This document shows, in pieces, positions 18,011-33,940 of a stretch of DNA of 64,000 bases. The position numbers were made by a program, and so were the translations under genes. The stretch lies in contig DATGWJ010000021.1 in assembly GCA_035299545.1 (NCBI GenBank), positions 10,090 to 74,089 of the forward strand, read 5' to 3'. Each line of letters opens with the position of its first letter. Position 1 is the first letter of the stretch. Origin of the DNA: Minisyncoccota bacterium. GTDB lineage: Bacteria; Patescibacteriota; Minisyncoccia; Phycocordibacterales; UBA9973. The notes below the pieces were generated by a model, which was given only the letters and a program-made list of their open reading frames with translations, did not search any database and was not told the DNA's origin.

Positions 18011-18056
18011 ATATGGATATTTTCTTTGTATTTGACTTATATGCTAAAATAAGAAT

Positions 18057-18983: not shown

Positions 18984-18990
18984 GAAACTA

Positions 18991-19858: not shown

Positions 19859-19907
19859 ATAATATAAAAAAATTATTTATAATGGCTTTACTTTCTTGTA
19901 AGACCTG

Positions 19908-19980: not shown

Positions 19981-19988
19981 AAATTTTG

Positions 19989-20075
19989 CGGAAGCGGTGA
20001 GATTTGAACTCACGATACGGTCTCCCGTATGCCGCTTTTCGAAAGCGGTGCCTTCAACCGCTCAGCCACGCTTCC
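19989..20075 (-). tRNA. tRNA-Ser (anticodon CGA), long variable arm
   Basis: Acceptor GGAAGCG/CGCTTCC, anticodon loop TTCGAAA, variable stem ATACGG/CCGTAT, T arm GTGAG-TTCAAAT-CTCAC. Confidence 0.85.
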
Positions 20076-20122
20076 ATATAAAACATTAAGTTAGTATACC
20101 GAAACGAGGCTAAATAATCAAT

Positions 20123-20755
20123 TTAAGGTAACTGTCGTACTTCTTTTTGAAGAATGTGACCATCTTCATCTAAGTCGTAAATTAAAACTTGCCCAAAAGG
20201 AAGCTCAACTTTCTCAATATCAGCATCAGAAATATTTTCTATATACTTCATTATTGAGCGACCAGAATTACCATGACATACGACTAAGACATTCTTCCCC
20301 TCTTTTAAAACTGGCAATATTTTATTCAAGAAAAAAGGCACAGACCTCTCGTAAACCATTTTCAAACTTTCTCCATTGGAAATATTGCAATCCCAACCTC
20401 TTCGAATTTTTAAAAATTCTTCTTCCCCTAGTAACTTTTGCATTTCCCATTTATTCTTACCGGTGTAGTCGCCGTAGTCACGCTCGTTTAACTCTTTAGC
20501 TTCTTCGGTAGGAATATCTTTACTTAAAGAACTACCTTCTTGTATGGATTCAAGTGTCTCTTTTGAGCGAACCTGAGCAGAGGTAAAAATCTTATCAAAA
20601 TGAATTCCTTCAACTAACTTTCCCATATTTCTTGCCTGTTCAAAACCAAGTGGAGACAAATGAACATCTACAACTCCAGTCCACTTCCCAAGCTTATTCC
20701 ATTCTGATTCGGTATGCCTTAATAACACAAGCTTTCCTACGTTTTTTGTTTCCAT
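20123..20755 (-). CDS. histidine phosphatase / phosphoglycerate mutase family protein
   Basis: LLRHTESEWN motif (RHG phosphohistidine site). Confidence 0.7.
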   Translation of the reverse strand: METKNVGKLVLLRHTESEWNKLGKWTGVVDVHLSPLGFEQARNMGKLVEGIHFDKIFTSAQVRSKETLESIQEGSSLSKDIPTEEAKELNERDYGDYTGKNKWEMQKLLGEEEFLKIRRGWDCNISNGESLKMVYERSVPFFLNKILPVLKEGKNVLVVCHGNSGRSIMKYIENISDADIEKVELPFGQVLIYDLDEDGHILQKEVRQLP

Positions 20756-20791
20756 TTATATAGTATACAACAAATAGTAAACCCTTCGCTC

Positions 20792-20820
20792 TTGACAAAA
20801 TGAGGCACTTACAATATACT
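20792..20820 (+). promoter_or_regulatory. near-consensus sigma-70 promoter TTGACA-17 nt-TATACT
   Basis: TTGACA at 20792-20797 and TATACT at 20815-20820, with exactly 17 nt between them. Confidence 0.55.
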
Positions 20821-20827
20821 GTGTTCT

Positions 20828-20936
20828 GCTTGGAGAGTTTAGAGAGTATCTCTTCAAAGCCGTTGTTCATTTGTGCTTTGTTCATGTTTTTAGGGTTAAG
20901 GTAAGCGGCTTTCGTTTGACGAAAGCCGCTTTTTTG
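20828..20936 (+). ncRNA. candidate small RNA of about 110 nt (promoter to intrinsic terminator, no convincing ORF)
   Basis: Predicted start just after the TATACT box. It ends at hairpin AAGCGGCTTTCGTTTGACGAAAGCCGCTTTTTTG (20903-20936). No plus-strand gene follows. Confidence 0.35.
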
Positions 20937-20939
20937 TTG

Positions 20940-21237
20940 TCTAAAAAGACAAATAAAAAGCCTCCACGATCAAACGTAGAGGCACATGTAAGGTTAATTA
21001 CCTAGGGAAAGTTTCGTTCAGGTATACGCGCCTACACATTGAACAAATGAAGAAAATTAGATCGGGAAGGTGTACATTGTACCCTATCGCCTTATTTTCC
21101 ATTTCCCAGTGGAACCTTGACTTAATGAGTATATTACTCGGAGGAGGAGGAATGTCAAGGGGAAATTTTTAGTTATCAAGTTCTACAACAAGAGATACTT
21201 CCAGTCTCTTCCCCTTAATGGTATTTAAATATATTGG
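20940..21237 (-). ncRNA. structured 3' region after the RT gene (candidate RT-associated ncRNA)
   Basis: 300 nt with no ORF between the RT stop and a minus-strand terminator (CCTCTACG-TTTGAT-CGTGGAGG plus T run, about 20945-20990). Contains nested helices (AAGGGGA...TCCCCTT; CCTTGAC...GTCAAGG) and a CCTCCTCCTCC tract. Confidence 0.3.
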
Positions 21238-22644
21238 TTAAATTTTTAAGTTATATATATTATTGACTCTATTTATGTGTTTTTGTATAAATTTATATGA
21301 GATAGCTTGTGAAGCTAAAAATCTTTTATGGTGAAATAGAAAATCTGTATGTAAACATTCTTTTGTAATATCTTTTAATAAAGCAAGAAAATACTTTTTT
21401 TGTTTAGTATCTATATTAGAGTATATTTTTTTATAGTCTTTAAAATCAGGAGGGTGGGAAACCAAAAAATCTTTTGTCAAAATAAACTTTATAAGGTCAT
21501 CAATTTTCTTCATCTTTCCATCAGCTTTCTTGAGAGAACTTAGTATAGCTCTAACTAAAGTTCTACCTCCAGACCTCAGGTCTTGCTTGTTCTTTAGATA
21601 AAACTCAATTGCTTTATCTATGTTTTTTGAAGAAACAACATTATTGCTTCCTCCTAGTTGCATAAGTATTTCAAATGCAAAATAATTATTAAATTCAGAT
21701 TTTTTTCTTACATGAACTTTTTTTTGATTCAAATTCAAACCTATCCTCATTAAATAACTAGAGGATCTTGCAATAATGTTTTTTATAACTTCTGTTGATT
21801 TAGCGAATACTACTTGGTCGTCTGCATAACGGAAATATTTTGCTCCTAATTTATCACATAATTCTTTCATTTTTTTGTCATAACTTTGCAGATAGAAGTT
21901 AGCTAGAATACGGGAACATTCTCCAAAGAGATCTTGTGGTAAACCAGCATTTTGATGTACATAAAAATTATTATGCCTATTCCAATATTTAAGAAAATGA
22001 AAAAGTAGATATACAACTTCATTATCTTTTGACTCTATATTGCTTCTTATTATATATTCCAGATGATCCAATCTTACTGAATCATAAAAGTTTGCAATAT
22101 CCAATTCTGCCACATAAGAATTTACATAATCATCAACAGAATATTTATAAATTTTGTTTGTAAAATCACCCCAATTAGCTGCCCATGCTTGTGGGTTAAA
22201 ATTAGTAGATATTTCGTATTCTCCTGACTGTATAAATGTATAATAATCTCCTTCAAATTCTTGTACAGAGATAAATTCTTTATCATAGCTAGATAGATCG
22301 ACTTCTTCCTCTATCTTTGTTTCCCCATTTAAAGACCACCCACCATAAGTTCCCTCTACTCTGTTTTTTGCTATGTATTTTTCTAATTTTCTTGTACAGT
22401 AAAAATAAACACAAAGATCTTCCAATTTAAATACAGGAATTACCCTTAAAACCTGGTTACCCTTATTAGAAATTAAATAATTTTGTGGTGGAGAGGGATA
22501 GTATTCTCTGCTTTTTATTTTTATATACAGATTATTAATTAATCTTTCTTTATTAATTGAGGTATATGGTATTAAAGTATCTTTAAGGTTATGTCTCCAA
22601 AACCCCTTATCTAAACATATTTCCTTAAATTCCTTTTCATTCAT
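21238..22644 (-). CDS. reverse transcriptase (unclassified, 468 aa with a long C-terminal extension)
   Basis: RT motifs 1-7: YPSPPQNYLISNKGNQVLRVIPVF; AELDIANFYDSVRLDHL; GLPQDLFGECSRILANFYL; YFRYADDQVVFA; RIGLNLNQKKVHV. No maturase or endonuclease domain. Confidence 0.85.
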   Translation of the reverse strand: MNEKEFKEICLDKGFWRHNLKDTLIPYTSINKERLINNLYIKIKSREYYPSPPQNYLISNKGNQVLRVIPVFKLEDLCVYFYCTRKLEKYIAKNRVEGTYGGWSLNGETKIEEEVDLSSYDKEFISVQEFEGDYYTFIQSGEYEISTNFNPQAWAANWGDFTNKIYKYSVDDYVNSYVAELDIANFYDSVRLDHLEYIIRSNIESKDNEVVYLLFHFLKYWNRHNNFYVHQNAGLPQDLFGECSRILANFYLQSYDKKMKELCDKLGAKYFRYADDQVVFAKSTEVIKNIIARSSSYLMRIGLNLNQKKVHVRKKSEFNNYFAFEILMQLGGSNNVVSSKNIDKAIEFYLKNKQDLRSGGRTLVRAILSSLKKADGKMKKIDDLIKFILTKDFLVSHPPDFKDYKKIYSNIDTKQKKYFLALLKDITKECLHTDFLFHHKRFLASQAISYKFIQKHINRVNNIYNLKI

Positions 22645-23186
22645 TTAGTATTTTTATCCTTAGAACTTTTTGTTATAGAGCTTTTTGTCCCATCTTCAAA
22701 AGTTCCTTCTAGGGCAATAAAGACATCAGCTGGATGTATGTTTGATTGATCAAAAGCAAGTCTTCTTATTTCTGGCTCAACAAATATCTGAGTTTTGTCT
22801 TTTTTACCTTTTTCTCCAGCGTAGACAACTAATCTTTTTCCTACTTTGGATTCAGTAAGAATTGCTCTGACAAAATACATATTATCTTTTGAATCAGCCT
22901 TGTCTTCTGCAATAGGGATAGCTTCATCATCAAGATTAATAAATTTCATTTTCTTAAACTCTTTGGAATTCAACTTATCAATAATGTAATGTTTTTGAAC
23001 ATTAAATTCTCTAGGAAGAGTATAATTTTTTTCACATTCCTGACATTTTAACCAACAAGCGTGTGGGTTATTTAATATTAAAGAAAGAGAGAGATGATGT
23101 TTAGGGCAAAGAGGTTTTGTATATTCCTCAGATGAGTATTGAACATGCCACTTAATTCCATCTATAATTACATATTGGTCATCCAT
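22641..23186 (-). CDS. zinc-ribbon protein co-transcribed with the RT (181 aa)
   Basis: CPKHH...CWLKCQEC Cys/His cluster. Its stop overlaps the RT start (ATGA), which suggests translational coupling. Confidence 0.6.
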   Translation of the reverse strand: MDDQYVIIDGIKWHVQYSSEEYTKPLCPKHHLSLSLILNNPHACWLKCQECEKNYTLPREFNVQKHYIIDKLNSKEFKKMKFINLDDEAIPIAEDKADSKDNMYFVRAILTESKVGKRLVVYAGEKGKKDKTQIFVEPEIRRLAFDQSNIHPADVFIALEGTFEDGTKSSITKSSKDKNTK

Positions 23187-23192
23187 AATATC

Positions 23193-23546
23193 TTAAAAAT
23201 CATAACCGTTATTACCAAAGTTATAATAACTACTTGTCTGTATACTTTTAACCAAAGTTCCTTTATTTCTACAATCAGGACACTCTTGCTCTTCAAGTTT
23301 AGCCCCTTTTGGAATATCAAAACCCTTTTTTGAGAAATTGCAGTTAGTGCATTCAGTATCTAATTTATAGAATTCTGGGATTTTATCATTCATGAGCAGA
23401 TTATAGCAAATTCTTAATAAAATACAAAAATATTTAGGGTCACTAAGGTATGCTTCGCATTCTATCCCAATGTGGTCACAAGTTACTAAATATTTTTCTT
23501 CAAGTATTCGAAAAATATGTAAGTACTCGCGACCCCAGCTCGGCAA
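23193..23546 (-). CDS. cysteine-rich small protein (117 aa), first gene of the RT operon. Start uncertain, apparently TTG
   Basis: TCDH, ECEAY, CTNC and CPDC pairs. Paralogous segment shared with ORF 25201..25440. Confidence 0.45.
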   Translation of the reverse strand: MPSWGREYLHIFRILEEKYLVTCDHIGIECEAYLSDPKYFCILLRICYNLLMNDKIPEFYKLDTECTNCNFSKKGFDIPKGAKLEEQECPDCRNKGTLVKSIQTSSYYNFGNNGYDF

Positions 23547-23625
23547 TTTTTCTGCTGAAAAATTATGCCTGTGCTTTCACAAAAGCGAAAAAGACTGGAG
23601 CAGTCCAGTCTTTTTAAATTCATGC

Positions 23626-23662
23626 TTTTGTGACCCTAGGGGTTAATAATTGGGGACGGATT
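23626..23662. repeat. degenerate copy of the tRNA-Glu 3' half (att-like footprint), copy 1
   Basis: TTTTGTGACCCTAGGGGTTAATAATTGGGGACGGATT versus the tRNA plus-strand AATTTGTGACCCTACCGGGAATCGAACCCGGATT. Preceded by hairpin GACTGGAGCAGTCCAGTC plus T run, as the tRNA is. Confidence 0.6.
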
Positions 23663-23812
23663 GTGGAGGATATAAAGGTATTTATAAGCTATGTTGATTT
23701 CTTGGTATATAAACACAATAGAAAGCTTGACATATCTACTTTTTTGTGCTAATCTCTAGAAAAGAACTTATTTGAAAATAAACTAATATATTCACTAATA
23801 AATGACAAAGGT

Positions 23813-24577
23813 ATGGGACACAGAACACTTAAAAGGGTGCCATTAAATTTTAATGCACCACTAAACAAAGTTTGGAAGGGATATTTAAATCCGTTTCCAG
23901 GACCACGAGAATGTAATCATTGCAAAGGTAGTGGGTATAATAATGCTACTAGGAAAATTGCAGATGATTATTATGGCCATTACTCTCAAAGAAGTCGTCG
24001 CTGGTGTGATAACATTACACAGGATGAAGTGCAAGCCCTCGTTGATGCTGGTCGTCTTTGGGATTTTACCAGAGTTCCCCTTAATGAAAAACAACTGAAA
24101 GATGTTTTGCCTAATGGCTGGCTTCCGTATGATAATGGAAAAATTCCTACAGCAGAAGAAGTTAACGCTTGGAGTGTTAAAGGTATTGGCCACGACACTT
24201 TTAATAAATCTATTTTAATTGAAACAAGAGCCAAACGTTTACATGTCTTCGGTTATTGTCCTCATTGTAAAGGAAAAGGAGAAACAAAACTTCCAAGGAA
24301 GATGAAAAAACGTTATCAAAACTGGCGGAAACATGATCCTCCACAAGGAGAAGGATTCCAGTTGTGGTCAACTACAACAGGAGGATCACCATTTAGCCCT
24401 GTTTTTGAAAATGCTGAACAACTTGCAGTATGGTGTGCAGATAATGCTACTATTTTTGCAGATTATAAACTAACTGCCAAAGAGTGGCTCCAGGTATTTG
24501 CAGATGAACATGTTCTTGATCTAGAAAGTTCCTGTATAATTGTAGTGAAAAAAGAAGCAGAATTTTGCTTAAATTAA
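23813..24577 (+). CDS. hypothetical protein with two CxxCxGxG zinc-finger motifs
   Basis: CNHCKGSGY and CPHCKGKGE. Own TTGACA-17 nt-TAATCT promoter at about 23737-23765 and a hairpin terminator at 24601-24632. Confidence 0.55.
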   Translation: MGHRTLKRVPLNFNAPLNKVWKGYLNPFPGPRECNHCKGSGYNNATRKIADDYYGHYSQRSRRWCDNITQDEVQALVDAGRLWDFTRVPLNEKQLKDVLPNGWLPYDNGKIPTAEEVNAWSVKGIGHDTFNKSILIETRAKRLHVFGYCPHCKGKGETKLPRKMKKRYQNWRKHDPPQGEGFQLWSTTTGGSPFSPVFENAEQLAVWCADNATIFADYKLTAKEWLQVFADEHVLDLESSCIIVVKKEAEFCLN

Positions 24578-24663
24578 TTGTTCATAAAAATTATTATTCT
24601 CTCCAATGGTTATAAGCCATTGGAGTTTTTTTATTTAAAAACACCCTCTTTTGAGAGTTTTTT

Positions 24664-24701
24664 AATTTGTGACCCTAGAGGTTAGTAGTTGGGGACAGAT
24701 T
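24664..24701. repeat. degenerate copy of the tRNA-Glu 3' half (att-like footprint), copy 2
   Basis: AATTTGTGACCCTAGAGGTTAGTAGTTGGGGACAGATT, followed by a TTGACA-17 nt-TATAGT promoter for the next ORF. Confidence 0.6.
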
Positions 24702-24786
24702 TTAGAAAATATAAGGGATTTTGGGTTTTATATTGACAATTAAATTTAAATCTGTTATAGTGTAATAAATTTTAAATTATACAATA

Positions 24787-25155
24787 ATGAGCAATAAAAT
24801 TGTGCACACAGTAATGACACAGGAAGGTCCCCGGTACAGAGTATGGTCAGATAATAGTGATAGATATGTAAGTCAAATCTTAACAGAAGATGAGCTTATG
24901 TTATTTTCAATTTTAATGGAAATAGAACCACTTCTGATAAATCATTTCTATGATCCCAAATATACTGGGGTAGTACTTGGTCACTGGATTCAGCGAGGAG
25001 AAGTTCTTAAGGATTGGAAGGTTGAATCAGAATTTATACCTGCTGATGATAAAGAGCAGGAAAAATATTCCAATATGGCAAAATCACAAAAAGAATTTCT
25101 ATTAAAAGCTGCCAATCTCTGGGAAGAATTCTTTCTTAATGGAAACATTAAGTGA
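24787..25155 (+). CDS. hypothetical protein (122 aa)
   Basis: ORF with an upstream consensus-like promoter; no motif recognised. Confidence 0.45.
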   Translation: MSNKIVHTVMTQEGPRYRVWSDNSDRYVSQILTEDELMLFSILMEIEPLLINHFYDPKYTGVVLGHWIQRGEVLKDWKVESEFIPADDKEQEKYSNMAKSQKEFLLKAANLWEEFFLNGNIK

Positions 25156-25200
25156 ATAACAACAAATCAAACGAGTATAACTTTTAATAGTGTACTCGTT

Positions 25201-25440
25201 TTATTTTACGTAACGATATACTGGAATTGCAAGTACACTTATTAAACCTAATAGGTTAGGGTCACTTTGGTATGCTTCTTCGCATTCATATTTTACGTGG
25301 TCACAAGTTAGACCGGGACCGCGAGTACGCTTATCGGTCATTACATGACCAGTACACCTTTTCCATTCGTGAGTACACTCACATGGAAAAGGTTTTCGAT
25401 TCCCGGACGCGAGATATGCAGATATCTCGCTTAGGGTCAC
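25201..25440 (-). CDS. cysteine-rich small protein, paralog of ORF 23193..23546
   Basis: GLTCDHVKYECEEAYQSDPNLL aligns to YLVTCDHIGIECEAYLSDPKYF. Chosen over the overlapping plus-strand ORF 25272..25460 because of this paralogy. Confidence 0.45.
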   Translation of the reverse strand: MTLSEISAYLASGNRKPFPCECTHEWKRCTGHVMTDKRTRGPGLTCDHVKYECEEAYQSDPNLLGLISVLAIPVYRYVK

Positions 25441-25481
25441 AAATTAAAAACTCCGACTGAAAGGTCGGCTTTTTTAATTTG

Positions 25482-25553
25482 TGACCCTACCGGGAATCGA
25501 ACCCGGATTACCGGCTTGAAAAGCCGATGTCCTAACCGTTAGACGATAGGGCC
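25482..25553 (-). tRNA. tRNA-Glu (anticodon UUC)
   Basis: Aligns position by position to E. coli tRNA-Glu: GGCCCUAUCGUCUAACGGUUAGGACAUCGGCUUUUCAAGCCGGUAAUCCGGGUUCGAUUCCCGGUAGGGUCA. Confidence 0.85.
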
Positions 25554-25768
25554 AAAATAATTACTAATTAACAATTAAATCAGTAATTGGTAATCATTAA
25601 TTACTTGTGAGTATAGCATTTTTGCTAAAATAATCAAATATTATGAGCGTTTTACCCTTGAAAAGTATGGATATTCTAGCTTGACTTTTTAGATAAAAAG
25701 TGATATAATATACACAAATAACTTGAAAATATAATAAAAATAAATAACGGCCTAGGAGGGCTTACATA

Positions 25769-26266
25769 ATGTCAACTCATACAAAATCACCTACTGACTC
25801 ACATGGAGAAACTAGTACCCCTAATGTAAGTACATCAAAAGTGTTCGCAATTTTTATAGGTATATTTTTTTCTATTATTATTATTATTTCAATAATAATA
25901 ATAATTAATAAGCCTAAAAAACTTAGAAATAACGTAAAAGTTATAGAACAAACAATGGTTAGTAATGTTTCAAAAACTTATGATCTTTCAGATATAAGTT
26001 ATGATTCATTATTAACTTTTGAAGTAAAGAATGGTGAGTTAATAAAAGTAGAACTTACTAATGATTGGTGCCCAATGTGGTCATCTGGAAAAATTAAAAC
26101 CTATGACGACAATAGAATTGAAAGAATTCTTGAGGGATCCAAATACATTAGAGGTCCTATAAGTACCCCTTCTCAAAATTACTTTTTCGTAAATAACAGT
26201 GCCTTTAAAATTACTGTTAAAATAGGAAGATGTAAATCAAAAACTGACTGTAAATTCAATCTTTAA
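25769..26266 (+). CDS. hypothetical membrane-anchored protein
   Basis: Poly-Ile TM helix. TTGACT-17 nt-TATAAT promoter and AGGAGGG Shine-Dalgarno upstream. Confidence 0.5.
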   Translation: MSTHTKSPTDSHGETSTPNVSTSKVFAIFIGIFFSIIIIISIIIIINKPKKLRNNVKVIEQTMVSNVSKTYDLSDISYDSLLTFEVKNGELIKVELTNDWCPMWSSGKIKTYDDNRIERILEGSKYIRGPISTPSQNYFFVNNSAFKITVKIGRCKSKTDCKFNL

Positions 26267-26276
26267 TCTTACTAAA

Positions 26277-27296
26277 ATGGAATTTGTATATAACTTAGGA
26301 ACGTTAATTATTCTATTCTTAATATTAGTTATTCTTAAACTAATATTACCACTAGTGTCATACAAAATGAAAACTTCCTTAATAATAGCAATATGTGGAG
26401 CAATATTATTTGCGGCTAGATTTATTTATCTTCTAATAGGAGAATTTAATTTATGGCCATTAATATTTTGTGTCATTTGTTGTGTTTTTATTTACAAAGG
26501 AAGTAAAACTGTTGCATTTAAAACAACAACTGGAGTATTTTCAAAGATTACTCAAAAGTATGTTGGGCATATGGATCAAGGATCTTTAAATTGGGCAGAC
26601 CCAATGTTTGAAGTAGTAACTATAAATGTTGATGGTTCTCCAAATATTTCTCTTGATTTACAGGAGTTAAAAATAGAAGTATTGTCTACTCCAGATATGC
26701 ACACTAAAGTCCGAGGGATAAGAGCTAAGGTAAAAAACATAGTGTTTATGCTAGAAATCATAGAAGATGAAATGCCTTATTTATTTGAAATTGAAGGAGG
26801 TGGAGAAACAATAAAGAAGCGAATTCTTTCTTTTATTAATCTTTTTTTTCTTGATGAAATTGGAAAAATAGATCCAGTTGATTTAGATGAAGATAAAGGA
26901 GAAATATTAAAAAAATTAGCTTCTCGATTAAAAAGATCAGTAAACTCTTTCTGTAAAAAGAATCATTATCCTTACAAAATTCCTAATGGTTCAATAGCCA
27001 CTATTGGTGACACAGAACTTGAAACTAAATACTATGAAGTATTAGCAAAAAAGGAATTCACCAAACTTGAACAAGATGGTTTTGATGTAGAAGCTGAAAG
27101 GATTCGTGAAAGACTTCTTACTCTTGGTAATGCACTTTTACCAACAGCAACAGACAACGAAAAGTTAAAAGCTGCTATGGTTGCTATTAAAATAACACCA
27201 AAAACAATCGAAGAAAAAACTTTTGGTGTTAATACAGAAATATCTGCTCTCTTAAAAGAATTAGCAGATATATTAAAGAATAAATTTGTACCTTAA
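26277..27296 (+). CDS. hypothetical polytopic membrane protein with a soluble C-terminal domain
   Basis: Two N-terminal TM helices; a distant SPFH-like flavour only. Confidence 0.45.
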   Translation: MEFVYNLGTLIILFLILVILKLILPLVSYKMKTSLIIAICGAILFAARFIYLLIGEFNLWPLIFCVICCVFIYKGSKTVAFKTTTGVFSKITQKYVGHMDQGSLNWADPMFEVVTINVDGSPNISLDLQELKIEVLSTPDMHTKVRGIRAKVKNIVFMLEIIEDEMPYLFEIEGGGETIKKRILSFINLFFLDEIGKIDPVDLDEDKGEILKKLASRLKRSVNSFCKKNHYPYKIPNGSIATIGDTELETKYYEVLAKKEFTKLEQDGFDVEAERIRERLLTLGNALLPTATDNEKLKAAMVAIKITPKTIEEKTFGVNTEISALLKELADILKNKFVP

Positions 27297-27302
27297 AATG
27301 AA

Positions 27303-27340
27303 ATCAAACACCCCGAGATAAATCTCGGGGTGTTTTTAAT
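27303..27340. terminator. intrinsic terminator AAACACCCCGAGATAAATCTCGGGGTGTTTTT (bidirectional)
   Basis: Perfect 10-bp GC-rich stem plus T run, between convergent genes. Confidence 0.7.
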
Positions 27341-27357
27341 TTCGTATATATAATACC

Positions 27358-27678
27358 CTATTGCATTTCTTGGATATTAATATTATTGTTATCTATTTGA
27401 ATTCTATGTTCTCCTATAGTGTTTAATATAATGTTCATAATTCCAAAAACTGAAACCATCACGAACATTCCTATTATCCCCCACAGCATATGCTTCTTAC
27501 TTGAATTACGAATTTCTTCGTTATCTGGATTAAAAAGATATTGTAAGATGCCATAGATAAAATATACGACAGCTAGAGCGAACAATAAAACAATTATAGG
27601 ATTTATAATTACTCTATTAACACTTCTAACTAGTGTCTCAATATTTGCTTCAGCTGTTGGTATAATCTCTAGAGCCAT
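27358..27678 (-). CDS. small two-TM pilin-like protein (TrbC/VirB2-like), paralog 1 of 5
   Basis: Shared core with neighbours: VVYFIYGILQYLFNPDNEEIRNSSKKHMLWGIIGMFVMVSVFGI. Confidence 0.45.
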   Translation of the reverse strand: MALEIIPTAEANIETLVRSVNRVIINPIIVLLFALAVVYFIYGILQYLFNPDNEEIRNSSKKHMLWGIIGMFVMVSVFGIMNIILNTIGEHRIQIDNNNINIQEMQ

Positions 27679-27681
27679 AGA

Positions 27682-28056
27682 TTAGTAACAATAAATACCA
27701 GCGTCAGGATTTGGAATACATGGGATATCTTCTTGTCTTAGTTGTTCAGGTCCAACTCCGAATGTATTTGTGATAAGTGATAGAATTCCCCAGAATGCTA
27801 CGATAACGAACAATCCAATAAGACCATTTATTATCTTACTTCTTGCATTCTTCTTAGCCTCTTCATCAGAAGACAAAGTAAACTGTATAACTCCCCAAAT
27901 AAAGTAAACAACTGCAAGAGTAATAAGTACAGGGATAGCATATCCGAGCAATCTTGCAATATTACCAAGGATACTGAATGCATTTACGCCATCTGCAGCA
28001 AGTGCAAGCATAGGCATAGAACCGAACACAACTCCTAACGAAATAATTTTCTTCAT
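27682..28056 (-). CDS. small two-TM pilin-like protein, paralog 2 of 5 (signal peptide ending LALA)
   Basis: VVYFIWGVIQFTLSSDEEAKKNARSKIINGLIGLFVIVAFWGI. Confidence 0.45.
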   Translation of the reverse strand: MKKIISLGVVFGSMPMLALAADGVNAFSILGNIARLLGYAIPVLITLAVVYFIWGVIQFTLSSDEEAKKNARSKIINGLIGLFVIVAFWGILSLITNTFGVGPEQLRQEDIPCIPNPDAGIYCY

Positions 28057-28177
28057 AAATAAATCTTTACTAATAAAAGATAATTCTTATAATTTTGTCC
28101 TTTAAACCGACCAGAGTAAAAAAGACATTAACTTTATAACCTTATTGTACCATAAAAGAACAAACTATTTAACAATT

Positions 28178-28498
28178 CTATTGCCCAGGAAGCTGAGGAA
28201 TAGTGTTTGAGATTTCAAATGTTCCAGTGAGGATAGCCACAAGCCCCCACATAGACAACATCACGAACAAACCAATTAACCCTCCGATAATAAAACTTCT
28301 TCCCTTCTTTCTCTTTTCTTCGTTCTCAGGATTTATGTAATACTGTATTACTCCCCATATGAACGCAACCGTTGCAAGTGCAAATAATAGTGGCACTACT
28401 GCTTTATACAAGAAACAACTTGCCCAGTTAACTATGCTAGTTAAATCTTGCATTGATTTACCTGAACAAACCCCGGAAACTGTAACATTATTATCCAT
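28178..28498 (-). CDS. small two-TM pilin-like protein, paralog 3 of 5
   Basis: VAFIWGVIQYYINPENEEKRKKGRSFIIGGLIGLFVMLSMWGL. Confidence 0.45.
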   Translation of the reverse strand: MDNNVTVSGVCSGKSMQDLTSIVNWASCFLYKAVVPLLFALATVAFIWGVIQYYINPENEEKRKKGRSFIIGGLIGLFVMLSMWGLVAILTGTFEISNTIPQLPGQ

Positions 28499-28518
28499 AA
28501 TTAATTCTTATTTTAATA

Positions 28519-28971
28519 TTATGTTGTTTTTTTAATATCTTCGACCGTTTTACCTATAGCGTCTGCTATTACAAATGCCCCCAGGAGTAACGCCGCGCCT
28601 ATGAGCGTATAAACTAGGGAGTTCTTTGCTTTTGTAAGTTTCTCAGAGTTGCCTTGTGCTTGTACAAATAGAAAGCCAGTATAGATAATAGCAAGTGCGA
28701 CAATTGGTATGCCTATGTAGAGAACTATATTTATGATTTCTTTTATAAAAGAAGGAATATCTTTAATGTTATCACCTAAAGGATTTTCTATTTTAGTTGT
28801 TATGTTTGTGCCTGTATTGTCTACTCCTGCAGAATTATTATTAGTATTATCAACTCCATCTGGAGCAGCAAAAACCACTGGAGCTAATAACATAACTGCA
28901 AAGACTATTATAAAACTATATTTTAAAATTCCCGATAATATGGTGTATTTTTTTGTTTTAAAAATTTTCAT
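28519..28971 (-). CDS. small two-TM pilin-like protein, paralog 4 of 5 (signal peptide, N-rich linker)
   Basis: IIYTGFLFVQAQGNSEKLTKAKNSLVYTLIGAALLLGAFVIA. Confidence 0.45.
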   Translation of the reverse strand: MKIFKTKKYTILSGILKYSFIIVFAVMLLAPVVFAAPDGVDNTNNNSAGVDNTGTNITTKIENPLGDNIKDIPSFIKEIINIVLYIGIPIVALAIIYTGFLFVQAQGNSEKLTKAKNSLVYTLIGAALLLGAFVIADAIGKTVEDIKKTT

Positions 28972-29102
28972 CCCGTTAGAGATAGGAATTCTTTAGATTT
29001 CCGTATCTTACTAATTATAATTAATAATATAGACCTAATAAAACATTTTCATTTATCTTAATAATATCACATACACATCTCTAACGGGATTATTAATAAT
29101 AA

Positions 29103-29498
29103 CTAACTTAAGAACGAGTCCCCTGTAAATCCAAGCGCCGCAAGTATCGACTTTACTATAAGCCAAGCTGCGAGAGCGATAACATAGCCAATAAGAGCAT
29201 TTTTAAATATATGCTTTGCTTTTGAGACATTCTCCGAACTCCCTCCAGATGAGAGGTAAAGCCATCCAGCATAAATTATAATAAGAGCAAAAATAGGAGT
29301 GGCAAGAGTTATAAGTATGAAGGAAATAATATTATTTATTATTGTCATTACCATATTAAAATCGCAAGGATCATCAAAACCACCACTATTATTTACAATT
29401 GTATTACACTCTGGCACCAACTTTGCTCCGAATGATATTAAAGGAACAGAGAATATTATGGCAAATCCTAGAACGAATGGAATGACTTTTTTAATCAT
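29103..29498 (-). CDS. small two-TM pilin-like protein, paralog 5 of 5
   Basis: IIYAGWLYLSSGGSSENVSKAKHIFKNALIGYVIALAAWLIV. Confidence 0.45.
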   Translation of the reverse strand: MIKKVIPFVLGFAIIFSVPLISFGAKLVPECNTIVNNSGGFDDPCDFNMVMTIINNIISFILITLATPIFALIIIYAGWLYLSSGGSSENVSKAKHIFKNALIGYVIALAAWLIVKSILAALGFTGDSFLS

Positions 29499-29500
29499 AA

Positions 29501-30820
29501 TTATTTCTTAAGTAGAAGTTCAAGCTGACCTTGAGCTTTATTTATGGACTCACTCACCGACAAATTATTTGATAATATATTTTCTATTAACTCTTTGAAA
29601 ATAGCATCACTTTGAGGTTTATTTGGATCTAGCCAAGACCTGGATATAAGAGCCGAATTAAAGAATGTAAACAAATAAGGGTTAGCTGGCTTTTCAGATA
29701 AAACAGCTCGTGAAGTAGGAGGCAAAGAAAGAGTAATACTTAAATCCTTTGCGACACTCCCCTGACTGAGAATTCCTGCTACACCAAAAGCTGAACTTAG
29801 ATTACTAGATTTCTTATTTATAACAATTGCATAAATTTCTCCATAAGTACGCTTTGTCTGCGAATTTTTAATTTGAGGAATTTGAGTCACATCATAACTT
29901 AAATTTGGATTCACAGACTGTATTTTAAACAACTCACTAGCTCTGCCTATATAGAATGCTAGCTTGCCCCCAGTGAACATATCTAGAGAGTTAGGAAGTG
30001 AACGATTCCATGAATACGCAGTATTGGAAGGATTAGAAAATTCAGTAAAGAATTTTACGACTGCTTCCATTGGACTTACAGAAAGTTTAGAAGGATTACT
30101 ATTTAATAGTGAAATATAACTTGTAGTGTTATTCGTAGCATCCACAGACCTCTTCACTATTCCGTTATTATTCTGAAGAAGTAATGTCGCTAATATATCT
30201 TTCGCATTATTAATATTGCCGTACTGACCAAGTGCTATCATACTTTGGCTTATAGTGCCAATATTATCTCTCTTAGTTAAAGTAGAATTGAGTGGGAATA
30301 ATTCATCCCAAGTCTTAAGCGGAGAAACAATTCCTTCATTAGATAAAATATCTTTGTTGTAGTACAGAACCATAGGGTCTACAACCAAAGGTAAACCTAC
30401 AACACCTTCACTGTCGAGGTAAATATCTGCTCCGTCTATAAATGAATCGCGGAATGTTTTCTCTGGATAGCTGGCATAAGGAATTTTGTATATAAAATTA
30501 TTATTCTTTACTACCATATCAGGAGTTATAATGAACAAATCAGGGCCAACTCCGTTTGCAAATGCTTCTATTAATTCTTGCTGATAGGAAGATGAATTTT
30601 TCTTGATGTAAGTAACACTGAGCTCTTTATTAGCATCATTCATGCCGTCGATAATGTCATACATTTCTGAACTAGGAAATGTCCCCCAAATAGTCACCTT
30701 GCCTTGGGGAGCGTTAGTATTCGATGAAATACCTAAATCAATTACTCCTGAGAATATTAAAACTCCAAAAACGAAAAATGATAGAAATATAGCGACAAGT
30801 ATTGTCTGGAAATTACTCAT
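29501..30820 (-). CDS. membrane-anchored extracellular solute-binding-protein-like protein (439 aa)
   Basis: N-terminal anchor and size consistent with a family-1 SBP fold; low-confidence family call. Stop and start abut the pilin-like array. Confidence 0.4.
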   Translation of the reverse strand: MSNFQTILVAIFLSFFVFGVLIFSGVIDLGISSNTNAPQGKVTIWGTFPSSEMYDIIDGMNDANKELSVTYIKKNSSSYQQELIEAFANGVGPDLFIITPDMVVKNNNFIYKIPYASYPEKTFRDSFIDGADIYLDSEGVVGLPLVVDPMVLYYNKDILSNEGIVSPLKTWDELFPLNSTLTKRDNIGTISQSMIALGQYGNINNAKDILATLLLQNNNGIVKRSVDATNNTTSYISLLNSNPSKLSVSPMEAVVKFFTEFSNPSNTAYSWNRSLPNSLDMFTGGKLAFYIGRASELFKIQSVNPNLSYDVTQIPQIKNSQTKRTYGEIYAIVINKKSSNLSSAFGVAGILSQGSVAKDLSITLSLPPTSRAVLSEKPANPYLFTFFNSALISRSWLDPNKPQSDAIFKELIENILSNNLSVSESINKAQGQLELLLKK

Positions 30821-31340
30821 ATGTAAATATTATACCATAATGGTGAACACTAGTGGAAATTTTTTCTTCAAATCGGAAGCCTCTTTTTTCAAAAAGTTCT
30901 CTTGCCTCGGCTTCTGGCATCACATGGTGCGGAGCTGGACCCATTCCTCCAAAGGAATCACTCCAATCCACAAGAAGAATTTTCCCACCTTTTCTAAGTA
31001 CACGCTTAGCTTCATCTATAATCCCAATCTTATCTTCCACTTGGAAAAGTACATTGGAAATTATCACAACATCCATAGAATTATCCAATAATTTAGTCCC
31101 TCCACGGCGTTCTATGTCGCCCCAAATACAATCTACGTTGTGTATTCCTAATTCTTTTAAATCTGATTCAAGTTTTTTTACTAAATCTTTCTGAACTTCA
31201 ATAGCATATACCTTTCCACTGTTGCCTACACGAGGACTAATGGCTTTACAATAGAAGCCAGTCCCAGCTCCGAAGTCTGCTACACGCATACCTTCTCTTA
31301 ACCCTAAATGTAGAATATTTGTTTCTGGTTTAGTAAACAT
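30813..31340 (-). CDS. class I SAM-dependent methyltransferase
   Basis: VADFGAGTG SAM-binding motif I. Confidence 0.7.
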   Translation of the reverse strand: MFTKPETNILHLGLREGMRVADFGAGTGFYCKAISPRVGNSGKVYAIEVQKDLVKKLESDLKELGIHNVDCIWGDIERRGGTKLLDNSMDVVIISNVLFQVEDKIGIIDEAKRVLRKGGKILLVDWSDSFGGMGPAPHHVMPEAEARELFEKRGFRFEEKISTSVHHYGIIFTYE

Positions 31341-31492: not shown

Positions 31493-33940
31493 CTATAAGA
31501 ATGTAATAGAAGCAATACTATCCCCTGGGCGGAGCTTCATCACGGTCACACCTTGCGTCTGGCGACCAGAAGTAGGAAGTGAATCCAAACTTACACGGAT
31601 AACTTGCCCTTTCTGAGACACCGCGATAATCTCACTTTCATCACTTACTATTTTCGCAACTATAAGCTTACCTGTCTTAGGAGTAACTTTTGCTGTCTTT
31701 ATACCAGAGCCACTTCTCTTCTGTGTTTTGTATTCTTTAATATTAGTTTTCTTACCAAGGCCATTTGCCGAGAGTGTGAGAATGGATAATGAATTCTCTC
31801 CTTTTGGAATACGATCCACTCCAATGACAAAGTCCCCTTTACCGAGCTTCATAGCACGCACACCTCCAGCACTGCGACCCATTTCTCGGACATCTGTCTC
31901 TTTGAATCTTATTGATTGTCCAAGCGCTGTGGCAAGCATCACATCATCACCTTTTGATATTGGAAGAACAGCTTGGAGTTCATCATCCTTATCGAGTCGG
32001 ATAGCTATCAATCCACTTCTTCGGACATCTTTGAAGCTCTCAGCTCCCACTTTCTTTGTCACGCCCATCTTGGTGACCATCATAAGTGTCTCTACTGTTT
32101 TCTTTGTCTCTTTATCTATAGGCAAAATAGAAGTCACCTTCTCTTCAGCTTCAAGAGAAATGAAGTTCATAATTGATTTACCTTTTGTTGCACGCTTACC
32201 TTCAGGAATATCATACATCTTTATCTGATATGCTTTTCCAAGATTAGTGAAGAATAGCAAATCCGAGTGGGTATTTGCGGATATAAGCATGGTTACGAAG
32301 TCTTCTTCTTTTGGCTCAATATCTATTACACCTACACCTCCGCGCTTCTGTGTGCGGTATTCAGAAGGGTCTGTACGCTTCACATATCCACCCTTAGTGA
32401 ATACGAGTACTGACTCTTTCTCTGGGATAAGGTCTTCTTCGTTTATTGCTTTCACTCCTCCTTTTATAATACGAGTGCGTCTTACATCAGAATATTTTTC
32501 TTTAATATCAATAAGTTCATCTGATATAACTTTCATCATTTTCTTTGGACTTGCAAGCAATGCCTCCAATTCTTTAATTAATTCTTGCTTTTCTTTCAAC
32601 TCAAGCTCCACATTTTTACGTTCAAGTCCAGCAAGTTTCTGCAACTTCATTTCAAGAATAGCTACAGCTTGAAGTTCAGAGAATTTAAATTCTTTCATCA
32701 AGTTTGCCTTAGCCACTTGGGTATCTTTAGATGCACGAATTACAGAAATAACTCGGTCAATATGATCAAGTGCTTTCTTGAGTCCTAGAAGAATATGCTC
32801 TCTTTCTTTTGCTTTTCGTAAATCGTACTCAGTTCGGCGACGAACAACTATCTGACGGTGTGTTATAAATTCACTAAGTAAACTCTTGAGCGAAAGCGTC
32901 TGAGGTACGCCATCCACAAGAGCCACGAGGTTGAAATTGAAAGATTGCTCGAGCTGTGTGTGCTTGTAAATGTAATTCAAAACTTTCTGAGGAATAACTC
33001 CACTCTTAAGGTCTATAACAATGCGAATATCTTTTGTAGATTCATCACGAAGACCTTTTACTCCTTCTAATTTTTTCTCTTGAATAAGAACTGCAATAGA
33101 CTCAATAAGAGCTGACTTATTTACTCTGTAAGGAATAGAAGTAATAATGATTTGGAAAGTATCACTCTTTTGTTCTACTATTTCGGCTTCTCCGCGAGTT
33201 ACAACACCACCACGTCCTGTAGAGTAAGCGTGAAGTAAATCATTTTGTCCATAAACTATTCCACCAATAGGAAAATCTGGACCTTTAATGTATTCCATTA
33301 ATTCTTCAGTGCTTGCATCTTTGTTTTCTATTAAGTGAACAGTAGCATCTACAACTTCACCAAGATTATGAGGAGGAATATTTGTAGCCATACCCACTGC
33401 AATACCCAGAGTTCCATTTAGGAGTAAATTAGGAACAGCTGTAGGCAGAACTACTGGTTCTTTGCGAGTCTGATCATAGTTCGGACGAAAATCCACTGTT
33501 TCTTTCTCAAGATCAAGAAGTAATAGTGATGAGAGTCGAGACATTTTGGCCTCTGTATAACGCATAGCAGCTGCTCCATCTCCGTCGATAGAACCAAAGT
33601 TTCCTTGTCCATGAATAAGAGGATAGCGATAAGAGAAATCTTGAGCCATTCCCACCATAGAATCGTAAACAGCCACATCACCGTGTGGGTGATACTTTCC
33701 GAGTACATCTCCGACTACCGCAGCACTTTTACGAAAACGACTTTGAGAAGTTAAACCCATTTCATACATCGCATACAAGATACGTCTATGAACTGGCTTT
33801 AATCCATCACGAACATCAGGAAGAGCACGGTCAGTAATAACCGACATCGCATAGTCGATGAACGAATCTTTCATCTCTGTACTAATTTCTACAGAAACGA
33901 CATTTATATGATTGTCTTTTTTTTCTTCTTCTTTAGCCAT
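31493..33940 (-). CDS. gyrA: DNA gyrase subunit A
   Basis: [28 protein letters not shown]; 815 aa. Confidence 0.95.

Follow-up and report, generated by a model that had tools for sequence, protein, structure and literature searches.

The window analysed here, a 64-kb stretch of DNA belonging to a Candidatus Paceibacterota genome bin, carries on its minus strand a block (27358-31340) that is a single operon, in which a gene for a SAM-dependent methyltransferase is followed by one for a MalE-type, solute-binding-like (SBP-like) protein and by five tandem genes for pilin-like proteins of the PF18895 family, named here pil1 to pil5 (Table 1). The methyltransferase gene, which had been left out of the block in the initial annotation, overlaps with its stop the SBP start by 8 nt; the SBP stop lies 2 nt before the start of pil1, the next genes are spaced by 131, 20, 121 and 3 nt, and one terminator closes the unit. 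The five pilin ORFs keep exactly the coordinates first listed, all on the minus strand, and an HMM built from them found no further copy of the array in the window. Next to the methyltransferase gene lies gyrA, identified through 85-92% identical orthologs annotated as PF00521/PF03989. The base composition of the block is like that of its surroundings. The tRNA island initially placed beside it was overstated, as the Glu tRNA alone is adjacent and those for Val and Ser are 5.7 kb off. An insertion bearing a reverse transcriptase is found about 2 kb from the block.

Table 1. Features of the locus, with positions in the window
Feature	Position	Strand	Description
tRNA-Glu	25481-25553		Adjoins the block
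Promoter-like site	25681-25709		TTGACT-17-TATAAT with upstream TG, 5' of the 165-aa gene
165-aa membrane protein	25769-26266	+	Single-pass, TM residues 28-46; immediately 5' of the SPFH gene
339-aa membrane protein	26277-27296	+	Three N-terminal TM helices; predicted SPFH (stomatin/prohibitin/flotillin/HflK/C) fold
Terminator	27306-27335		Bidirectional intrinsic hairpin, 13-bp stem with 7 G-C pairs, between both convergent units
pil5, 106 aa	27358-27678	-	Final gene of the operon; conserved N-terminus MxFxIIPxAEA
pil4, 124 aa	27682-28056	-	Classical signal peptide (...ALA|AD), two-helix hairpin
pil3, 106 aa	28178-28498	-	Without signal peptide in this genome; loop NPENEEKRKKGR
pil2, 150 aa	28519-28971	-	Long K-rich signal peptide, low-complexity N/G/T spacer, NPLG motif, two-helix module
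pil1, 131 aa	29103-29498	-	Signal peptide, variable Cys...Cys loop (predicted extracellular), two-helix pilin module
SBP-like protein, 439 aa	29501-30820	-	MalE-type; N-terminal signal-anchor helix
Methyltransferase, 175 aa	30813-31340	-	SAM-dependent; first gene of the operon
gyrA	31493-33940		

The array proteins are indeed divergent paralogs, alignable at pairwise identities of 21-50%, and each is built of two strongly hydrophobic segments with a short charged loop in between. A signal or anchor helix had been ascribed to every copy; the two hydrophobic segments occur in all five, but a signal-like N-terminal helix only in the 131-, 150- and 124-aa proteins, being absent from both 106-aa copies, for which the upstream room is also too small. 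In a similar way, the proposed NP[DE]NEE motif with a K/R-rich stretch behind it is matched to the letter by genes three and five alone, and GLIG...W/FG can be recognised approximately in all five. Each position has features of its own. Some pil1 orthologs carry big TIG/IPT, FN3-like or DUF5018 domains N-terminal to the pilin module, pil3 has two TM segments and a conserved Cys pair preceding helix 1, and pil5 lacks a signal peptide in every ortholog, some of which bear C-terminal extensions of about 250-510 aa (with repeats in locus L015). The pil4 protein, named 'pilin' at NCBI, has 519 homologs, many of them 60-89% identical, and a conserved Cys pair in its C-terminal tail; its AlphaFold2 model (pLDDT 76) shows helices at residues 3-19, 26-61 and 65-99. 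With a median ortholog identity of 64% it is among the best conserved of the five, and likely represents the candidate major subunit. The hairpin topology, the Cys pairs of the tails and the N-terminal (pil1) and C-terminal (pil5) additions indicate that both termini of the pilins would be outside the cell.

All five proteins exceed the gathering score of PF18895 (T4SS_pilin; cut-off 26.6 bits), with 34.3, 27.4, 36.4, 38.7 and 33.6 bits from pil1 to pil5. The TrbC/VirB2 model (PF04956), to which the initial annotation had pointed, is approached by two array proteins and passed by none of the five, with pil2 slightly below the cut-off of 27.9 (26.0 bits, E 1e-5) and pil1 at 18.8 bits. For a comparison by hhalign, 53 diverse proteins from such arrays were combined into one profile; against VirB2/TrbC proteins located between virB1 and virB3, it matched over the whole mature two-helix module (probability 90.4%, E 1.4e-6; VirB2 residues 53-118, that is, the mature pilin) at about 9% identity, whereas the controls (reversed and column-shuffled profiles, and the AtpE c-subunit) stayed at a probability of 0.5% or less. 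Membership in a VirB2/TrbC-like pilin superfamily, as originally suggested, is therefore supported by these profile comparisons.

The first gene of the operon matches Methyltransf_31 (68.9 bits) and Methyltransf_11 (56.7 bits), and directly precedes that for the SBP in the close family as well as in L025-L029 and in loci of the L042/Moranbacteria type (36% identity to the L042 copy, E 3e-41). The assignment of its neighbour as SBP-like holds with SBP_bac_8 (61.2 bits) and SBP_bac_1 (55 bits), and its weak matches in the PDB are to sugar-binding proteins. It had been called a lipoprotein; however, its N-terminus, with a single TM segment at residues 9-27, has neither a Cys nor a lipobox, and this copy is thus signal-anchored, a lipobox being found in distant orthologs. 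There is no ABC permease or ATPase gene beside it or among the scanned ORFs of the window. A pilin ORF starts within 300 nt past the SBP stop in 62 of the 67 related loci with enough DNA downstream of the SBP gene; of the other five, L020, L024, L043 and L114 do have the array, which the filter missed because ORF calls overlapped or the SBP was fragmented, and in L109 the 1.2 kb that follow the SBP gene contain no array. This linkage is still seen at 25% SBP identity. Distant lineages have a GalU-like NTP_transferase gene directly 5' of the SBP, and a gene for an MGDG-synthase-type glycosyltransferase lies between their pilin genes or behind them.

The order gyrA, methyltransferase, SBP and pil1 to pil5 is kept in 24 of 25 distinct loci of the close family (L005-L029), the lone exception being L025, where a gene for a PheT-like protein is found upstream instead. 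Even in relatives whose gyrA is no more than 68-70% identical, every ORF finds its best match in the paralog at its own position. Median ortholog identities are 52-64% for the pilins, 65% for the SBP and 64% for the methyltransferase, and each array position keeps its own architecture regarding signal peptide (or none), a Cys pair preceding or following the helices, low-complexity spacer and domain fusions. Recent duplicates, repeats and silent cassettes were all absent at the array. As judged from sequence comparison, the array genes represent five orthologous groups of old origin in fixed order, which evolve about as fast as their neighbours.

The connection with type IV secretion comes from another lineage. 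No VirB4, VirB3/PrgI, VirB6 or VirD4 was detected in the 64-kb window, where every ORF of at least 250 aa was scanned with Pfam (gyrA via its orthologs) and Patescibacterial VirB4 and PrgI were used in phmmer searches, in agreement with what had been noted for VirB4, VirB6 and VirD4. Nor did these components occur at up to 10 kb from the array in the remaining 39 genome loci, except for an ambiguous HerA/DUF87 ATPase in L039; according to the literature, the VirB4/PrgI/VirB6 core is located near dnaA in the Paceibacteria class. In L042 (Moranbacteria UBA1362), the genes run as methyltransferase, SBP, pilin, pilin, PrgI/VirB3 (39 bits), a 228-aa ORF and VirB4 (P-loop_TraG 101 bits, CagE_TrbE_VirB 21.4 bits), an order shared by all 14 further metagenome contigs long enough to show it, some of them not distinct. 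Since in this Moranbacteria-type lineage the module runs into PrgI/VirB3 and VirB4, it is tied to a type IV secretion system (T4SS). Patescibacteria-clade VirB4 has been reported in 2,407 of 3,035 assemblies and arrays of 2-11 VirB2-like genes in 383 Patescibacteria assemblies (PMC12102498), and in Southlakia epibionticum the pilin array is essential for epibiotic growth (PMC10633639).

Altogether, we consider it probable, if by no means certain, that the block is the extracellular pilus-forming module of a Patescibacterial T4SS, which in this Paceibacteria lineage would lie away from the VirB4/PrgI/VirB6 core. The pilins would insert in the membrane so that both termini face outwards and the K/R-rich loop the cell interior, with three of them relying on a cleavable signal peptide, and the T4SS ATPase and channel would then pull them out and polymerise them. 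The five may be old, non-redundant subunits with fixed roles, of which pil4 would likely be the major one and pil1 and pil5 the display or tip subunits, as their orthologs bear adhesin-type domains. The SBP-like protein would probably be an adhesin or sensor that binds glycans, or else a partner in assembly, and the complete structure would be used for contact with the host cell, or for transfer to or from it. The sequence data show to which family the proteins belong, their topology features, the operon, the conserved order and, in another lineage, the link to PrgI and VirB4, whereas polymerisation, the roles of the single subunits and those of the SBP-like protein and the methyltransferase are inferred. 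Several points count against a T4SS pilus module, such as the sub-threshold PF04956 scores, the two copies without signal peptide and the lack of a T4SS core in the window. Moreover, a profile search of the PDB placed VirB2 (8cue) at E 0.006, no better than GPCR transmembrane noise, Foldseek with the hairpin model gave nothing specific, and the literature covered describes no filament for any PF18895 protein. To our knowledge, a strict linkage to an SBP fold is also without precedent among classical T4SSs.

Alternatively, the PF18895 proteins might not be pilus subunits at all, but two-helix membrane anchors, or subunits of a membrane complex working with the SBP-like protein independently of any T4SS in Paceibacteria, for instance as a device to bind or take up glycans from the host. 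The near-universal SBP-array linkage, the lack of a nearby secretion ATPase in 39 of 40 genome loci, the sugar-metabolism neighbours of the distant lineages and the binding of sugars by the closest PDB relatives of the SBP all fit this idea, and orthologs with large extracellular fusions could be mere anchored surface proteins. We find it unlikely, although worth keeping in mind, given that neither the adjacent genes nor the scanned window ORFs include a permease or ATPase partner, that there is a specific profile match to true VirB2, that the module continues into PrgI and VirB4 in L042 and the 14 metagenome contigs, and that the same family sits inside the essential T4SS cluster of S. epibionticum (PMC10633639).

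The two plus-strand genes, correctly described as convergent with the array, had been taken as companion membrane proteins. The 339-aa product gave no match in Pfam (Band_7 included), NCBIfam or PDB sequence searches, but Foldseek with its AlphaFold2 model (pLDDT 82.6) retrieved HflK/C (7wi3, E 6e-8), erlin, prohibitin, flotillin and stomatin from the PDB, all with probability 1.0, and the predicted structure is thus that of an SPFH (HflK/C-like) fold. SPFH proteins are scaffolds of membrane complexes, and a gene for a small membrane protein followed by an SPFH gene resembles the order of NfeD-SPFH pairs; the pair in the window differs from SPFH operons in that Pfam recognises neither Band_7 nor NfeD, and that the 339-aa protein has three TM helices at its N-terminus and belongs to a very narrow family of 23 proteins. 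No family was found for the 165-aa protein in searches that included Pfam, NCBIfam and PHROG. A functional companion, such as an SPFH scaffold organising the assembly site, would agree with the adjacent and convergent arrangement of both genes in the window and in L003, L015, L022 and L027, but seems improbable. A promoter-like site of their own precedes the two genes, which form a separate convergent operon, set off from the array by the bidirectional terminator; they adjoin the array in no more than 4 distinct relatives, being absent from the 10 kb downstream in the other 21 of the 25 close-family loci, and the SPFH-fold family is narrow compared with an array module that spans classes. The SPFH-fold protein is probably outside the pilin system.

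Still less credible is that the five copies are interchangeable major pilins for antigenic or host-range variation, an idea put forward for Patescibacteria arrays (PMC12102498) and, as antigenic diversification, for this one; the VirB2 paralogs of Bartonella and Anaplasma have served as the analogy in the literature. The low identity between copies would be in line with it; however, the separate orthologous group and architecture at each position, the order fixed across relatives, ortholog medians equal to those of the flanking SBP and methyltransferase, and the absence of duplicates, repeats and cassettes argue against it. Finally, generic holin-like or phage-derived membrane peptides, as the small size, the two TM segments and the nearby reverse-transcriptase insertion might suggest, are effectively refuted by the lack of holin Pfam matches and of PHROG families at E ≤0.01 (beyond one weak match of unknown function) and by gyrA-adjacent chromosomal synteny across many genomes; the surroundings-like composition also speaks against them.

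VirB2-like pilin arrays in Patescibacteria were already published in 2023-2025, and the one described here belongs to this known kind. The arrays of Quinonero-Coronel et al. 2025 (PMC12102498) similarly combine PF18895 with PF04956 in 2-11 divergent tandem copies (about 25% mean identity), chromosomal and with no relaxase nearby, and many surveyed pilin genes are not beside virB4. That virB4-anchored survey reported Microgenomatia and Saccharimonadia as the richest in arrays and suggested antigenic or host-range variation, whereas our array is in Paceibacteria, far from virB4, consists of five fixed orthologous groups and follows a methyltransferase and an SBP-like gene, a linkage of which we found no mention in the paper and the supplements consulted. 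What the present analysis adds is the conserved set and order of five orthologous groups, the operon with methyltransferase and SBP, the near-constant SBP-pilin linkage and the Moranbacteria-type junction. S. epibionticum (SEML1_0014-0019; Wang et al. 2023, PMC10633639) also has six tandem PF18895 proteins, some matching TrbC/VirB2, in a monoderm cell with no recognised relaxase or coupling protein; its array is within a VirB4/PrgI/VirB6 cluster that lists no SBP_bac_1 gene, in contrast to the array here, detached from the core and joined to SBP-like and methyltransferase genes. The Agrobacterium VirB2 T-pilin/TrbC (PF04956; PDB 8cue, 8exh) shares the signal peptide, two hydrophobic helices and short loop, but at about 9% identity, with PF04956 below threshold, and in a diderm instead of a monoderm envelope; moreover, classical T4SSs have one major pilin plus VirB5 and not five paralogs. 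Bartonella and Anaplasma likewise possess several tandem divergent VirB2-type genes, read as antigenic variation, whereas one-to-one orthology and fixed order here point to non-redundant roles. The major and minor pilins of type II secretion systems and of type IV pili also form a fixed set, with a single operon for about five different small subunits, of which some have extra domains. Although their fold is unrelated, their assembly machine is another and the array pilins have no prepilin peptidase motif, the extra domains on some subunits would by analogy suggest tip, base and shaft roles.

The pilin-like genes of this operon appear to be fixed, non-redundant subunits and not variants of one another, they are accompanied across classes by genes for a protein of the solute-binding (SBP) fold and for a methyltransferase, and in one lineage the module is fused to a PrgI-VirB4 core. 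The operon lies in a window of ~34% GC, rich in housekeeping genes (gyrA, ftsA/ftsZ, mreB, hisS, pth, frr and the gene of ribosomal protein S1). The five paralogous pilin-like ORFs pointed out in the initial annotation (pil1 to pil5, see Table) are indeed present, share 21-50% pairwise identity and show in hydropathy analysis two strongly hydrophobic segments each, with a short charged loop in between. An HMM built from the five did not find a sixth copy in the 64-kb window, and the intergenic gaps from pil1 to pil5 measure 131, 20, 121 and 3 nt. Upstream of pil1 and on the same strand, an SBP-like gene (SBP_bac_1/SBP_bac_8) ends 2 nt before the pil1 start, and the stop of a SAM-dependent methyltransferase gene overlaps in turn the SBP start by 8 nt. 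The initial observation is thus confirmed, and the unit extends further than first drawn, since the methyltransferase gene also belongs to it.

Table. Features of the pilin operon in the window and of related loci (L-numbers, loci gathered from genomes and metagenome contigs)
Feature	Coordinates	Strand	Description
Methyltransferase	30813-31340	-	175 aa, SAM-dependent
SBP-like protein	29501-30820	-	439 aa
pil1	29103-29498	-	131 aa, first pilin in transcription order
pil2	28519-28971	-	150 aa
pil3	28178-28498	-	106 aa
pil4	27682-28056	-	124 aa
pil5	27358-27678	-	106 aa, last pilin in transcription order
Bidirectional terminator	27306-27335		13-bp stem, 3' of pil5
L042 cluster (Candidatus Moranbacteria UBA1362)	9312-19502	one strand	In order: methyltransferase, SBP (SBP_bac_1, 108 bits), pilin, protein with two pilin modules, PrgI/VirB3 (39.3 bits, cut-off 27), 228-aa ORF, VirB4, 177-aa ORF, ComM, G5 + lytic-transglycosylase protein
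pil1/pil5 ortholog fusion, L021	8382-10490		Fused to two-helix pilin module
pil1/pil5 ortholog fusion, L008	1311-3122		Fused to two-helix pilin module
pil1/pil5 ortholog fusion, L007	11312-12682		Fused to two-helix pilin module
pil1/pil5 ortholog fusion, L015	13065-14948		Fused to two-helix pilin module
pil1/pil5 ortholog fusion, L016	8479-10248		Fused to two-helix pilin module

A search with the SBP-like protein against one genome per species yielded 40 Patescibacteria loci. In the close family (25 loci, L005-L029), with SBPs 30-75% and gyrA 55-92% identical to those of the window, 24 loci have gyrA and the methyltransferase gene ahead of the SBP gene, the exception being L025 with a PheT-like gene upstream, and in those 24 the order pil1-pil5 is kept after the SBP gene wherever the contig reaches far enough. 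Moreover, the best match of every pilin ORF in the close family is the window paralog of the same position. Alignments of the orthologs revealed distinct traits for each group: a signal peptide and a Cys-bounded variable loop in pil1; a long K-rich signal peptide, a low-complexity spacer and an NPLG motif in pil2; a Cys pair ahead of helix 1 in pil3; a classical signal peptide and a C-terminal Cys pair in pil4; and a conserved N-terminus MxFxIIPxAEA in pil5, where none of the orthologs has a signal peptide.

Regarding family membership, the five proteins exceed the gathering cut-off (26.6 bits) of PF18895 (T4SS_pilin), with scores of 34.3 (pil1), 27.4 (pil2), 36.4 (pil3), 38.7 (pil4) and 33.6 bits (pil5), and the same family is the precomputed annotation on homologs and neighbouring proteins. 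Hydropathy and AlphaFold2 gave the PF18895/VirB2 architecture of two helices and a short charged loop in ~100-150 aa, the pil4 model being a hairpin of helices 26-61 and 65-99 (pLDDT 76), and a protein identical to pil4 (124 aa), encoded on an 81-kb contig of a genome bin, is recorded at NCBI as "pilin [Candidatus Paceibacterota bacterium]". The exact pilin sequence also occurs on short Logan contigs, and SRR5823602 contains identical contigs. The comparison with TrbC/VirB2 (PF04956, cut-off 27.9 bits), initially put forward as the check, left all five below the threshold, just under it in the case of pil2 (26.0 bits, E 1e-5), at 18.8 bits for pil1 and with no match for pil3, pil4 and pil5; scores against NCBIfam NF045849 (Mbov_0395 pilin-like conjugal transfer protein) were 22.6-35.7 bits, under its 40-bit cut-off. 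An HMM profile of the array searched against PDB sequences retrieved VirB2 (8cue) with an E of 0.006, but GPCR transmembrane segments scored alike, and for this reason the search was replaced by a controlled hhalign test. The query was an alignment of 53 diverse array members and the target a set of six VirB2/TrbC proteins from MPF_T plasmids, each encoded between virB1 and virB3, which were retrieved with a Ti-type query used as a lead only and 85% identical to the real proteins. The entire two-helix module aligned to residues 53-118 of Agrobacterium VirB2 with a probability of 90.4% (E 1.4e-6), and the controls (reversed, six column-shuffled and the unrelated two-helix AtpE c-subunit) gave at most 0.5% each. 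This signal comes from the diverse profile only, as profiles of single orthologous groups reached 49% for pil1 and at most 1.5% for the others. A Foldseek search of the PDB with the pil4 hairpin found generic helical hairpins only (best E 0.7), a two-helix hairpin being too simple for an informative fold search. Altogether, these profile comparisons indicate that the assignment of pil1-pil5 is correct, and that their VirB2/TrbC-like identity stands at the superfamily level.

The SBP-like protein scored 55 bits against SBP_bac_1 and 61.2 bits against SBP_bac_8, above the gathering cut-offs. Linkage to the pilins was scored when a pilin ORF began no more than 300 nt from the SBP stop codon, and 62 of the 67 loci with enough downstream DNA showed it. 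A pilin array is nonetheless present in four of the five failures (L020, L024, L043 and L114), where ORF calls overlapped or the SBP was fragmented, and in the remaining one (L109) the 1.2 kb of DNA available downstream contain no pilin. SBPs of as little as 25% identity still show the linkage, which extends to Falkowbacteria, Moranbacteria and further lineages and to arrays as long as 13 genes. The annotated neighbours of the SBP gene in L042 and three other relatives (L002-L004) include no ABC permease or ATPase genes, nor do such genes flank it in the window. Its description as a lipoprotein did not survive for the window copy, which like eight close orthologs has no Cys in the first 60 residues and hence no lipobox; a lipobox-like motif does occur in 23 of the 67 SBP orthologs, among them some distant ones and those of the Moranbacteria-type cluster (L042 and L086-L114), which are putative lipoproteins. 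As for the gene just upstream of the SBP gene, in distant lineages a GalU-like NTP_transferase replaces the methyltransferase, at L030, L032-L035, L037, L039, L041, L043 and L044; at L041 one pilin-like ORF lies between the GalU-like and SBP genes, and an MGDG-synthase-type glycosyltransferase occurs among or after the pilin genes at L041, L043 and L044.

The scan of window ORFs of at least 250 aa, all covered save gyrA (identified through annotated orthologs), agreed with the initial annotation in that no VirB4, VirB6 or VirD4 is found in the 64 kb; VirB3/PrgI is likewise absent, and two ORFs, 3942-5240 and 51806-52705, were left without family assignment. The Moranbacteria cluster of L042 offers a different picture, with PrgI/VirB3 and VirB4 genes following the pilins on the same strand. 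Its VirB4 matches P-loop_TraG (101 bits), AAA_10, DUF87 and CagE_TrbE_VirB (21.4 bits), and the 228-aa and 177-aa proteins of this type of cluster have no family match. The L042 order, at least through VirB4, was found in 14 out of 14 long-enough metagenome contigs (not all distinct), with SBPs 56-100% identical in a scan with that of L042, and it is repeated in contigs L086-L114. The window proteins are related to those of L042 for both the methyltransferase (36% identity, E 3e-41) and the SBP (27% identity, E 6e-38). The contiguity with PrgI and VirB4 in L042 therefore places the module physically within the T4SS cluster in one class, whereas it is detached in Paceibacteria, for which virB4 has been described near dnaA in the literature. 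Two further candidates were examined. ORF 3942-5240 (minus strand, 432 aa, with an N-terminal TM segment, between a sigma-70-region-4/HARE-HTH gene and yceG) was considered as a hidden T4SS part, but it has no Pfam, NCBIfam or PDB match and is unlike the unassigned ORFs of the Moranbacteria-type cluster. A 703-aa ATPase of L039 (171-2282), with N-terminal membrane segments and located 4 kb upstream of the SBP-pilin array, is HerA/DUF87-like, ambiguous as a VirB4- or T4CP-like partner and found at one locus only; two NUDIX genes, a Bro-N gene, two small unannotated ORFs and a GalU-like gene lie in between.

The Patescibacteria account for a considerable part of the bacterial diversity that has not been cultured, and their life is spent in attachment to host cells. 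Arrays of this kind have already been described in the group, so this is not a new system. In Southlakia epibionticum, six PF18895 pilins are encoded within a T4SS cluster that is essential (Wang et al. 2023, PMC10633639), and 441 VirB2-like arrays of 2-11 genes, with a mean identity of 25% within an array, were reported in 383 Patescibacteria assemblies (Quinonero-Coronel et al. 2025, PMC12102498). The latter work found Patescibacteria-clade VirB4 in 2,407 of 3,035 assemblies, and, of the 1,948 VirB4-carrying assemblies with pilin genes, no more than 1,135 had them near virB4. A 2025 review regards VirB2-like arrays as a hallmark of Patescibacteria (PMC12857230), and no T4SS other than theirs, with its VirB2-like pilins, has been shown to be required for growth of the bacterium that bears it (PMC10633639, PMC12857230). 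What is added here is the fixed five-subunit organisation and the methyltransferase-SBP partnership, linked to VirB4 in another class; no mention of the SBP-array linkage was found in PMC12102498 or its accessible supplements, nor by full-text literature search.

A signal-like helix with an A-x-A-type site occurs in pil1, pil2 and pil4, and in neither of the 106-aa copies, pil3 and pil5. Some relatives have a pil1 with 200-600 residues inserted between signal peptide and pilin module, and the inserted domains include TIG/IPT (61 bits), FN3-like and DUF5018. Others have a pil5 that continues for roughly 250-510 residues beyond helix 2, with tandem repeats seen in L015. These fusions, the conserved Cys pairs of the tails and the K/R-rich loop between the helices point together to a membrane topology where both termini are extracellular and the loop is intracellular, which is also the one adopted by VirB2- and F-type pilins before assembly.

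On balance, the operon probably codes for that module of the Patescibacterial T4SS which lies outside the cell and forms the pilus. Both ends of each pilin would face outward after insertion, which pil1, pil2 and pil4 would achieve through Sec and signal peptidase and pil3 and pil5 without a leader, and a core of VirB4, PrgI and VirB6 encoded elsewhere in the genome would extract and polymerise them. The best candidate for the shaft subunit would be pil4, which is among the two most conserved pilins (64%) and has a canonical signal peptide, and candidates for exposed or tip positions would be pil1 and pil5, as they tolerate adhesin-type fusions; the sugar-binding-fold (SBP-like) protein may serve as adhesin, sensor or assembly partner. 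A more tentative and, as a whole, doubtful extension is that methyltransferase, SBP and pilins form a conserved, so far unremarked T4SS module, where the methyltransferase would modify the pilins and the five of these would assemble into a single heteromeric filament, in which shaft, tip and base are each made of a fixed subunit. In that case the MalE-fold protein would be dedicated to the secretion system or pilus, for instance as an adhesin or sensor that recognises glycans or as a platform for assembly, and would have no part in a transporter. If the SBP-like protein is truly a T4SS component, it becomes a candidate host-recognition element of these epibionts. The main rival explanation is that the pilin hairpins form with the SBP-like protein a membrane complex independent of secretion, which would fit both the tight SBP-pilin linkage and a window free of core genes; the alignment with VirB2 and the Moranbacteria cluster argue for the T4SS module, and we regard the rival as rather unlikely.

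Another alternative involves the convergent plus-strand genes for a 165-aa (25769-26266) and a 339-aa protein (26277-27296), initially taken as companion membrane proteins of the block. The pair ends at the terminator common to the array. A separate promoter-like site (TTGACT-17-TATAAT with an upstream TG, 25681-25709) belongs to the pair, which adjoins the array in no more than four distinct relatives (L003, L015, L022 and L027), and the family of the 339-aa protein has only 23 members. The two genes are treated as neighbours and not as companions of the array, and a functional association with an SPFH protein is improbable. The 339-aa protein has no sequence-family match, Band_7 Pfam included, so its SPFH membership is fold-based only: the AlphaFold2 model (pLDDT 82.6) retrieved HflK/C, erlin, prohibitin, flotillin and stomatin with Foldseek (E 6e-8 to 1e-3, probability 1.0), and as modelled it is a divergent SPFH protein, with the SPFH fold and a long coiled-coil helix. 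The 165-aa protein is its upstream membrane partner.

The divergence of the five copies had also suggested antigenic diversification, that is, an array of recent, fast-evolving and interchangeable copies. The five orthologous groups occupy fixed positions, and the median identity of the window pilins to their orthologs is 52-64% (pil4 with 64% and pil5 with 63% being the most conserved) versus 65% for the SBP and 64% for the methyltransferase next to them, with 88% for gyrA, which makes antigenic variation very unlikely. Judged from these identities, pil1-pil5 are old, non-redundant genes under ordinary constraint. Finally, an origin as holins or phage membrane peptides, the scenario that the initial annotation had set against the pilins, is hardly conceivable, since no holin family match was obtained, nor any PHROG match apart from a weak one of unknown function, and the chromosomal synteny is conserved.

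Other parts of the window deserve a mention. Compared with L002 and L015, it contains a ~5.6-kb insertion (20100-25700) bounded by tRNA-Val/Ser (19907-20075) and tRNA-Glu (25481-25553), which encodes a histidine phosphatase, an RVT_1 reverse transcriptase and several Cys-rich CxxC proteins. The reverse transcriptase (468 aa, 21238-22644, minus strand) overlaps a 181-aa ORF; no long template/variable repeat pair was found that would make it a DGR, and no Rfam match at E <=0.01 that would make it part of a group II intron or retron. A 57-nt direct repeat (23627-23683 and 24666-24722, 81% identical) lies 65-130 nt upstream of the plus-strand genes starting at 23813 and 24787, and may be a shared leader or regulatory element. 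A multi-domain protein of 1118 aa (44669-48025, minus strand) combines PG_binding_1, Laminin_G_3, GDSL lipase and polysaccharide lyase 14 domains; it is probably located on the cell surface and could be an enzyme attacking the host cell wall. A second PG_binding_1 protein is encoded next to it, at 48057-48635.
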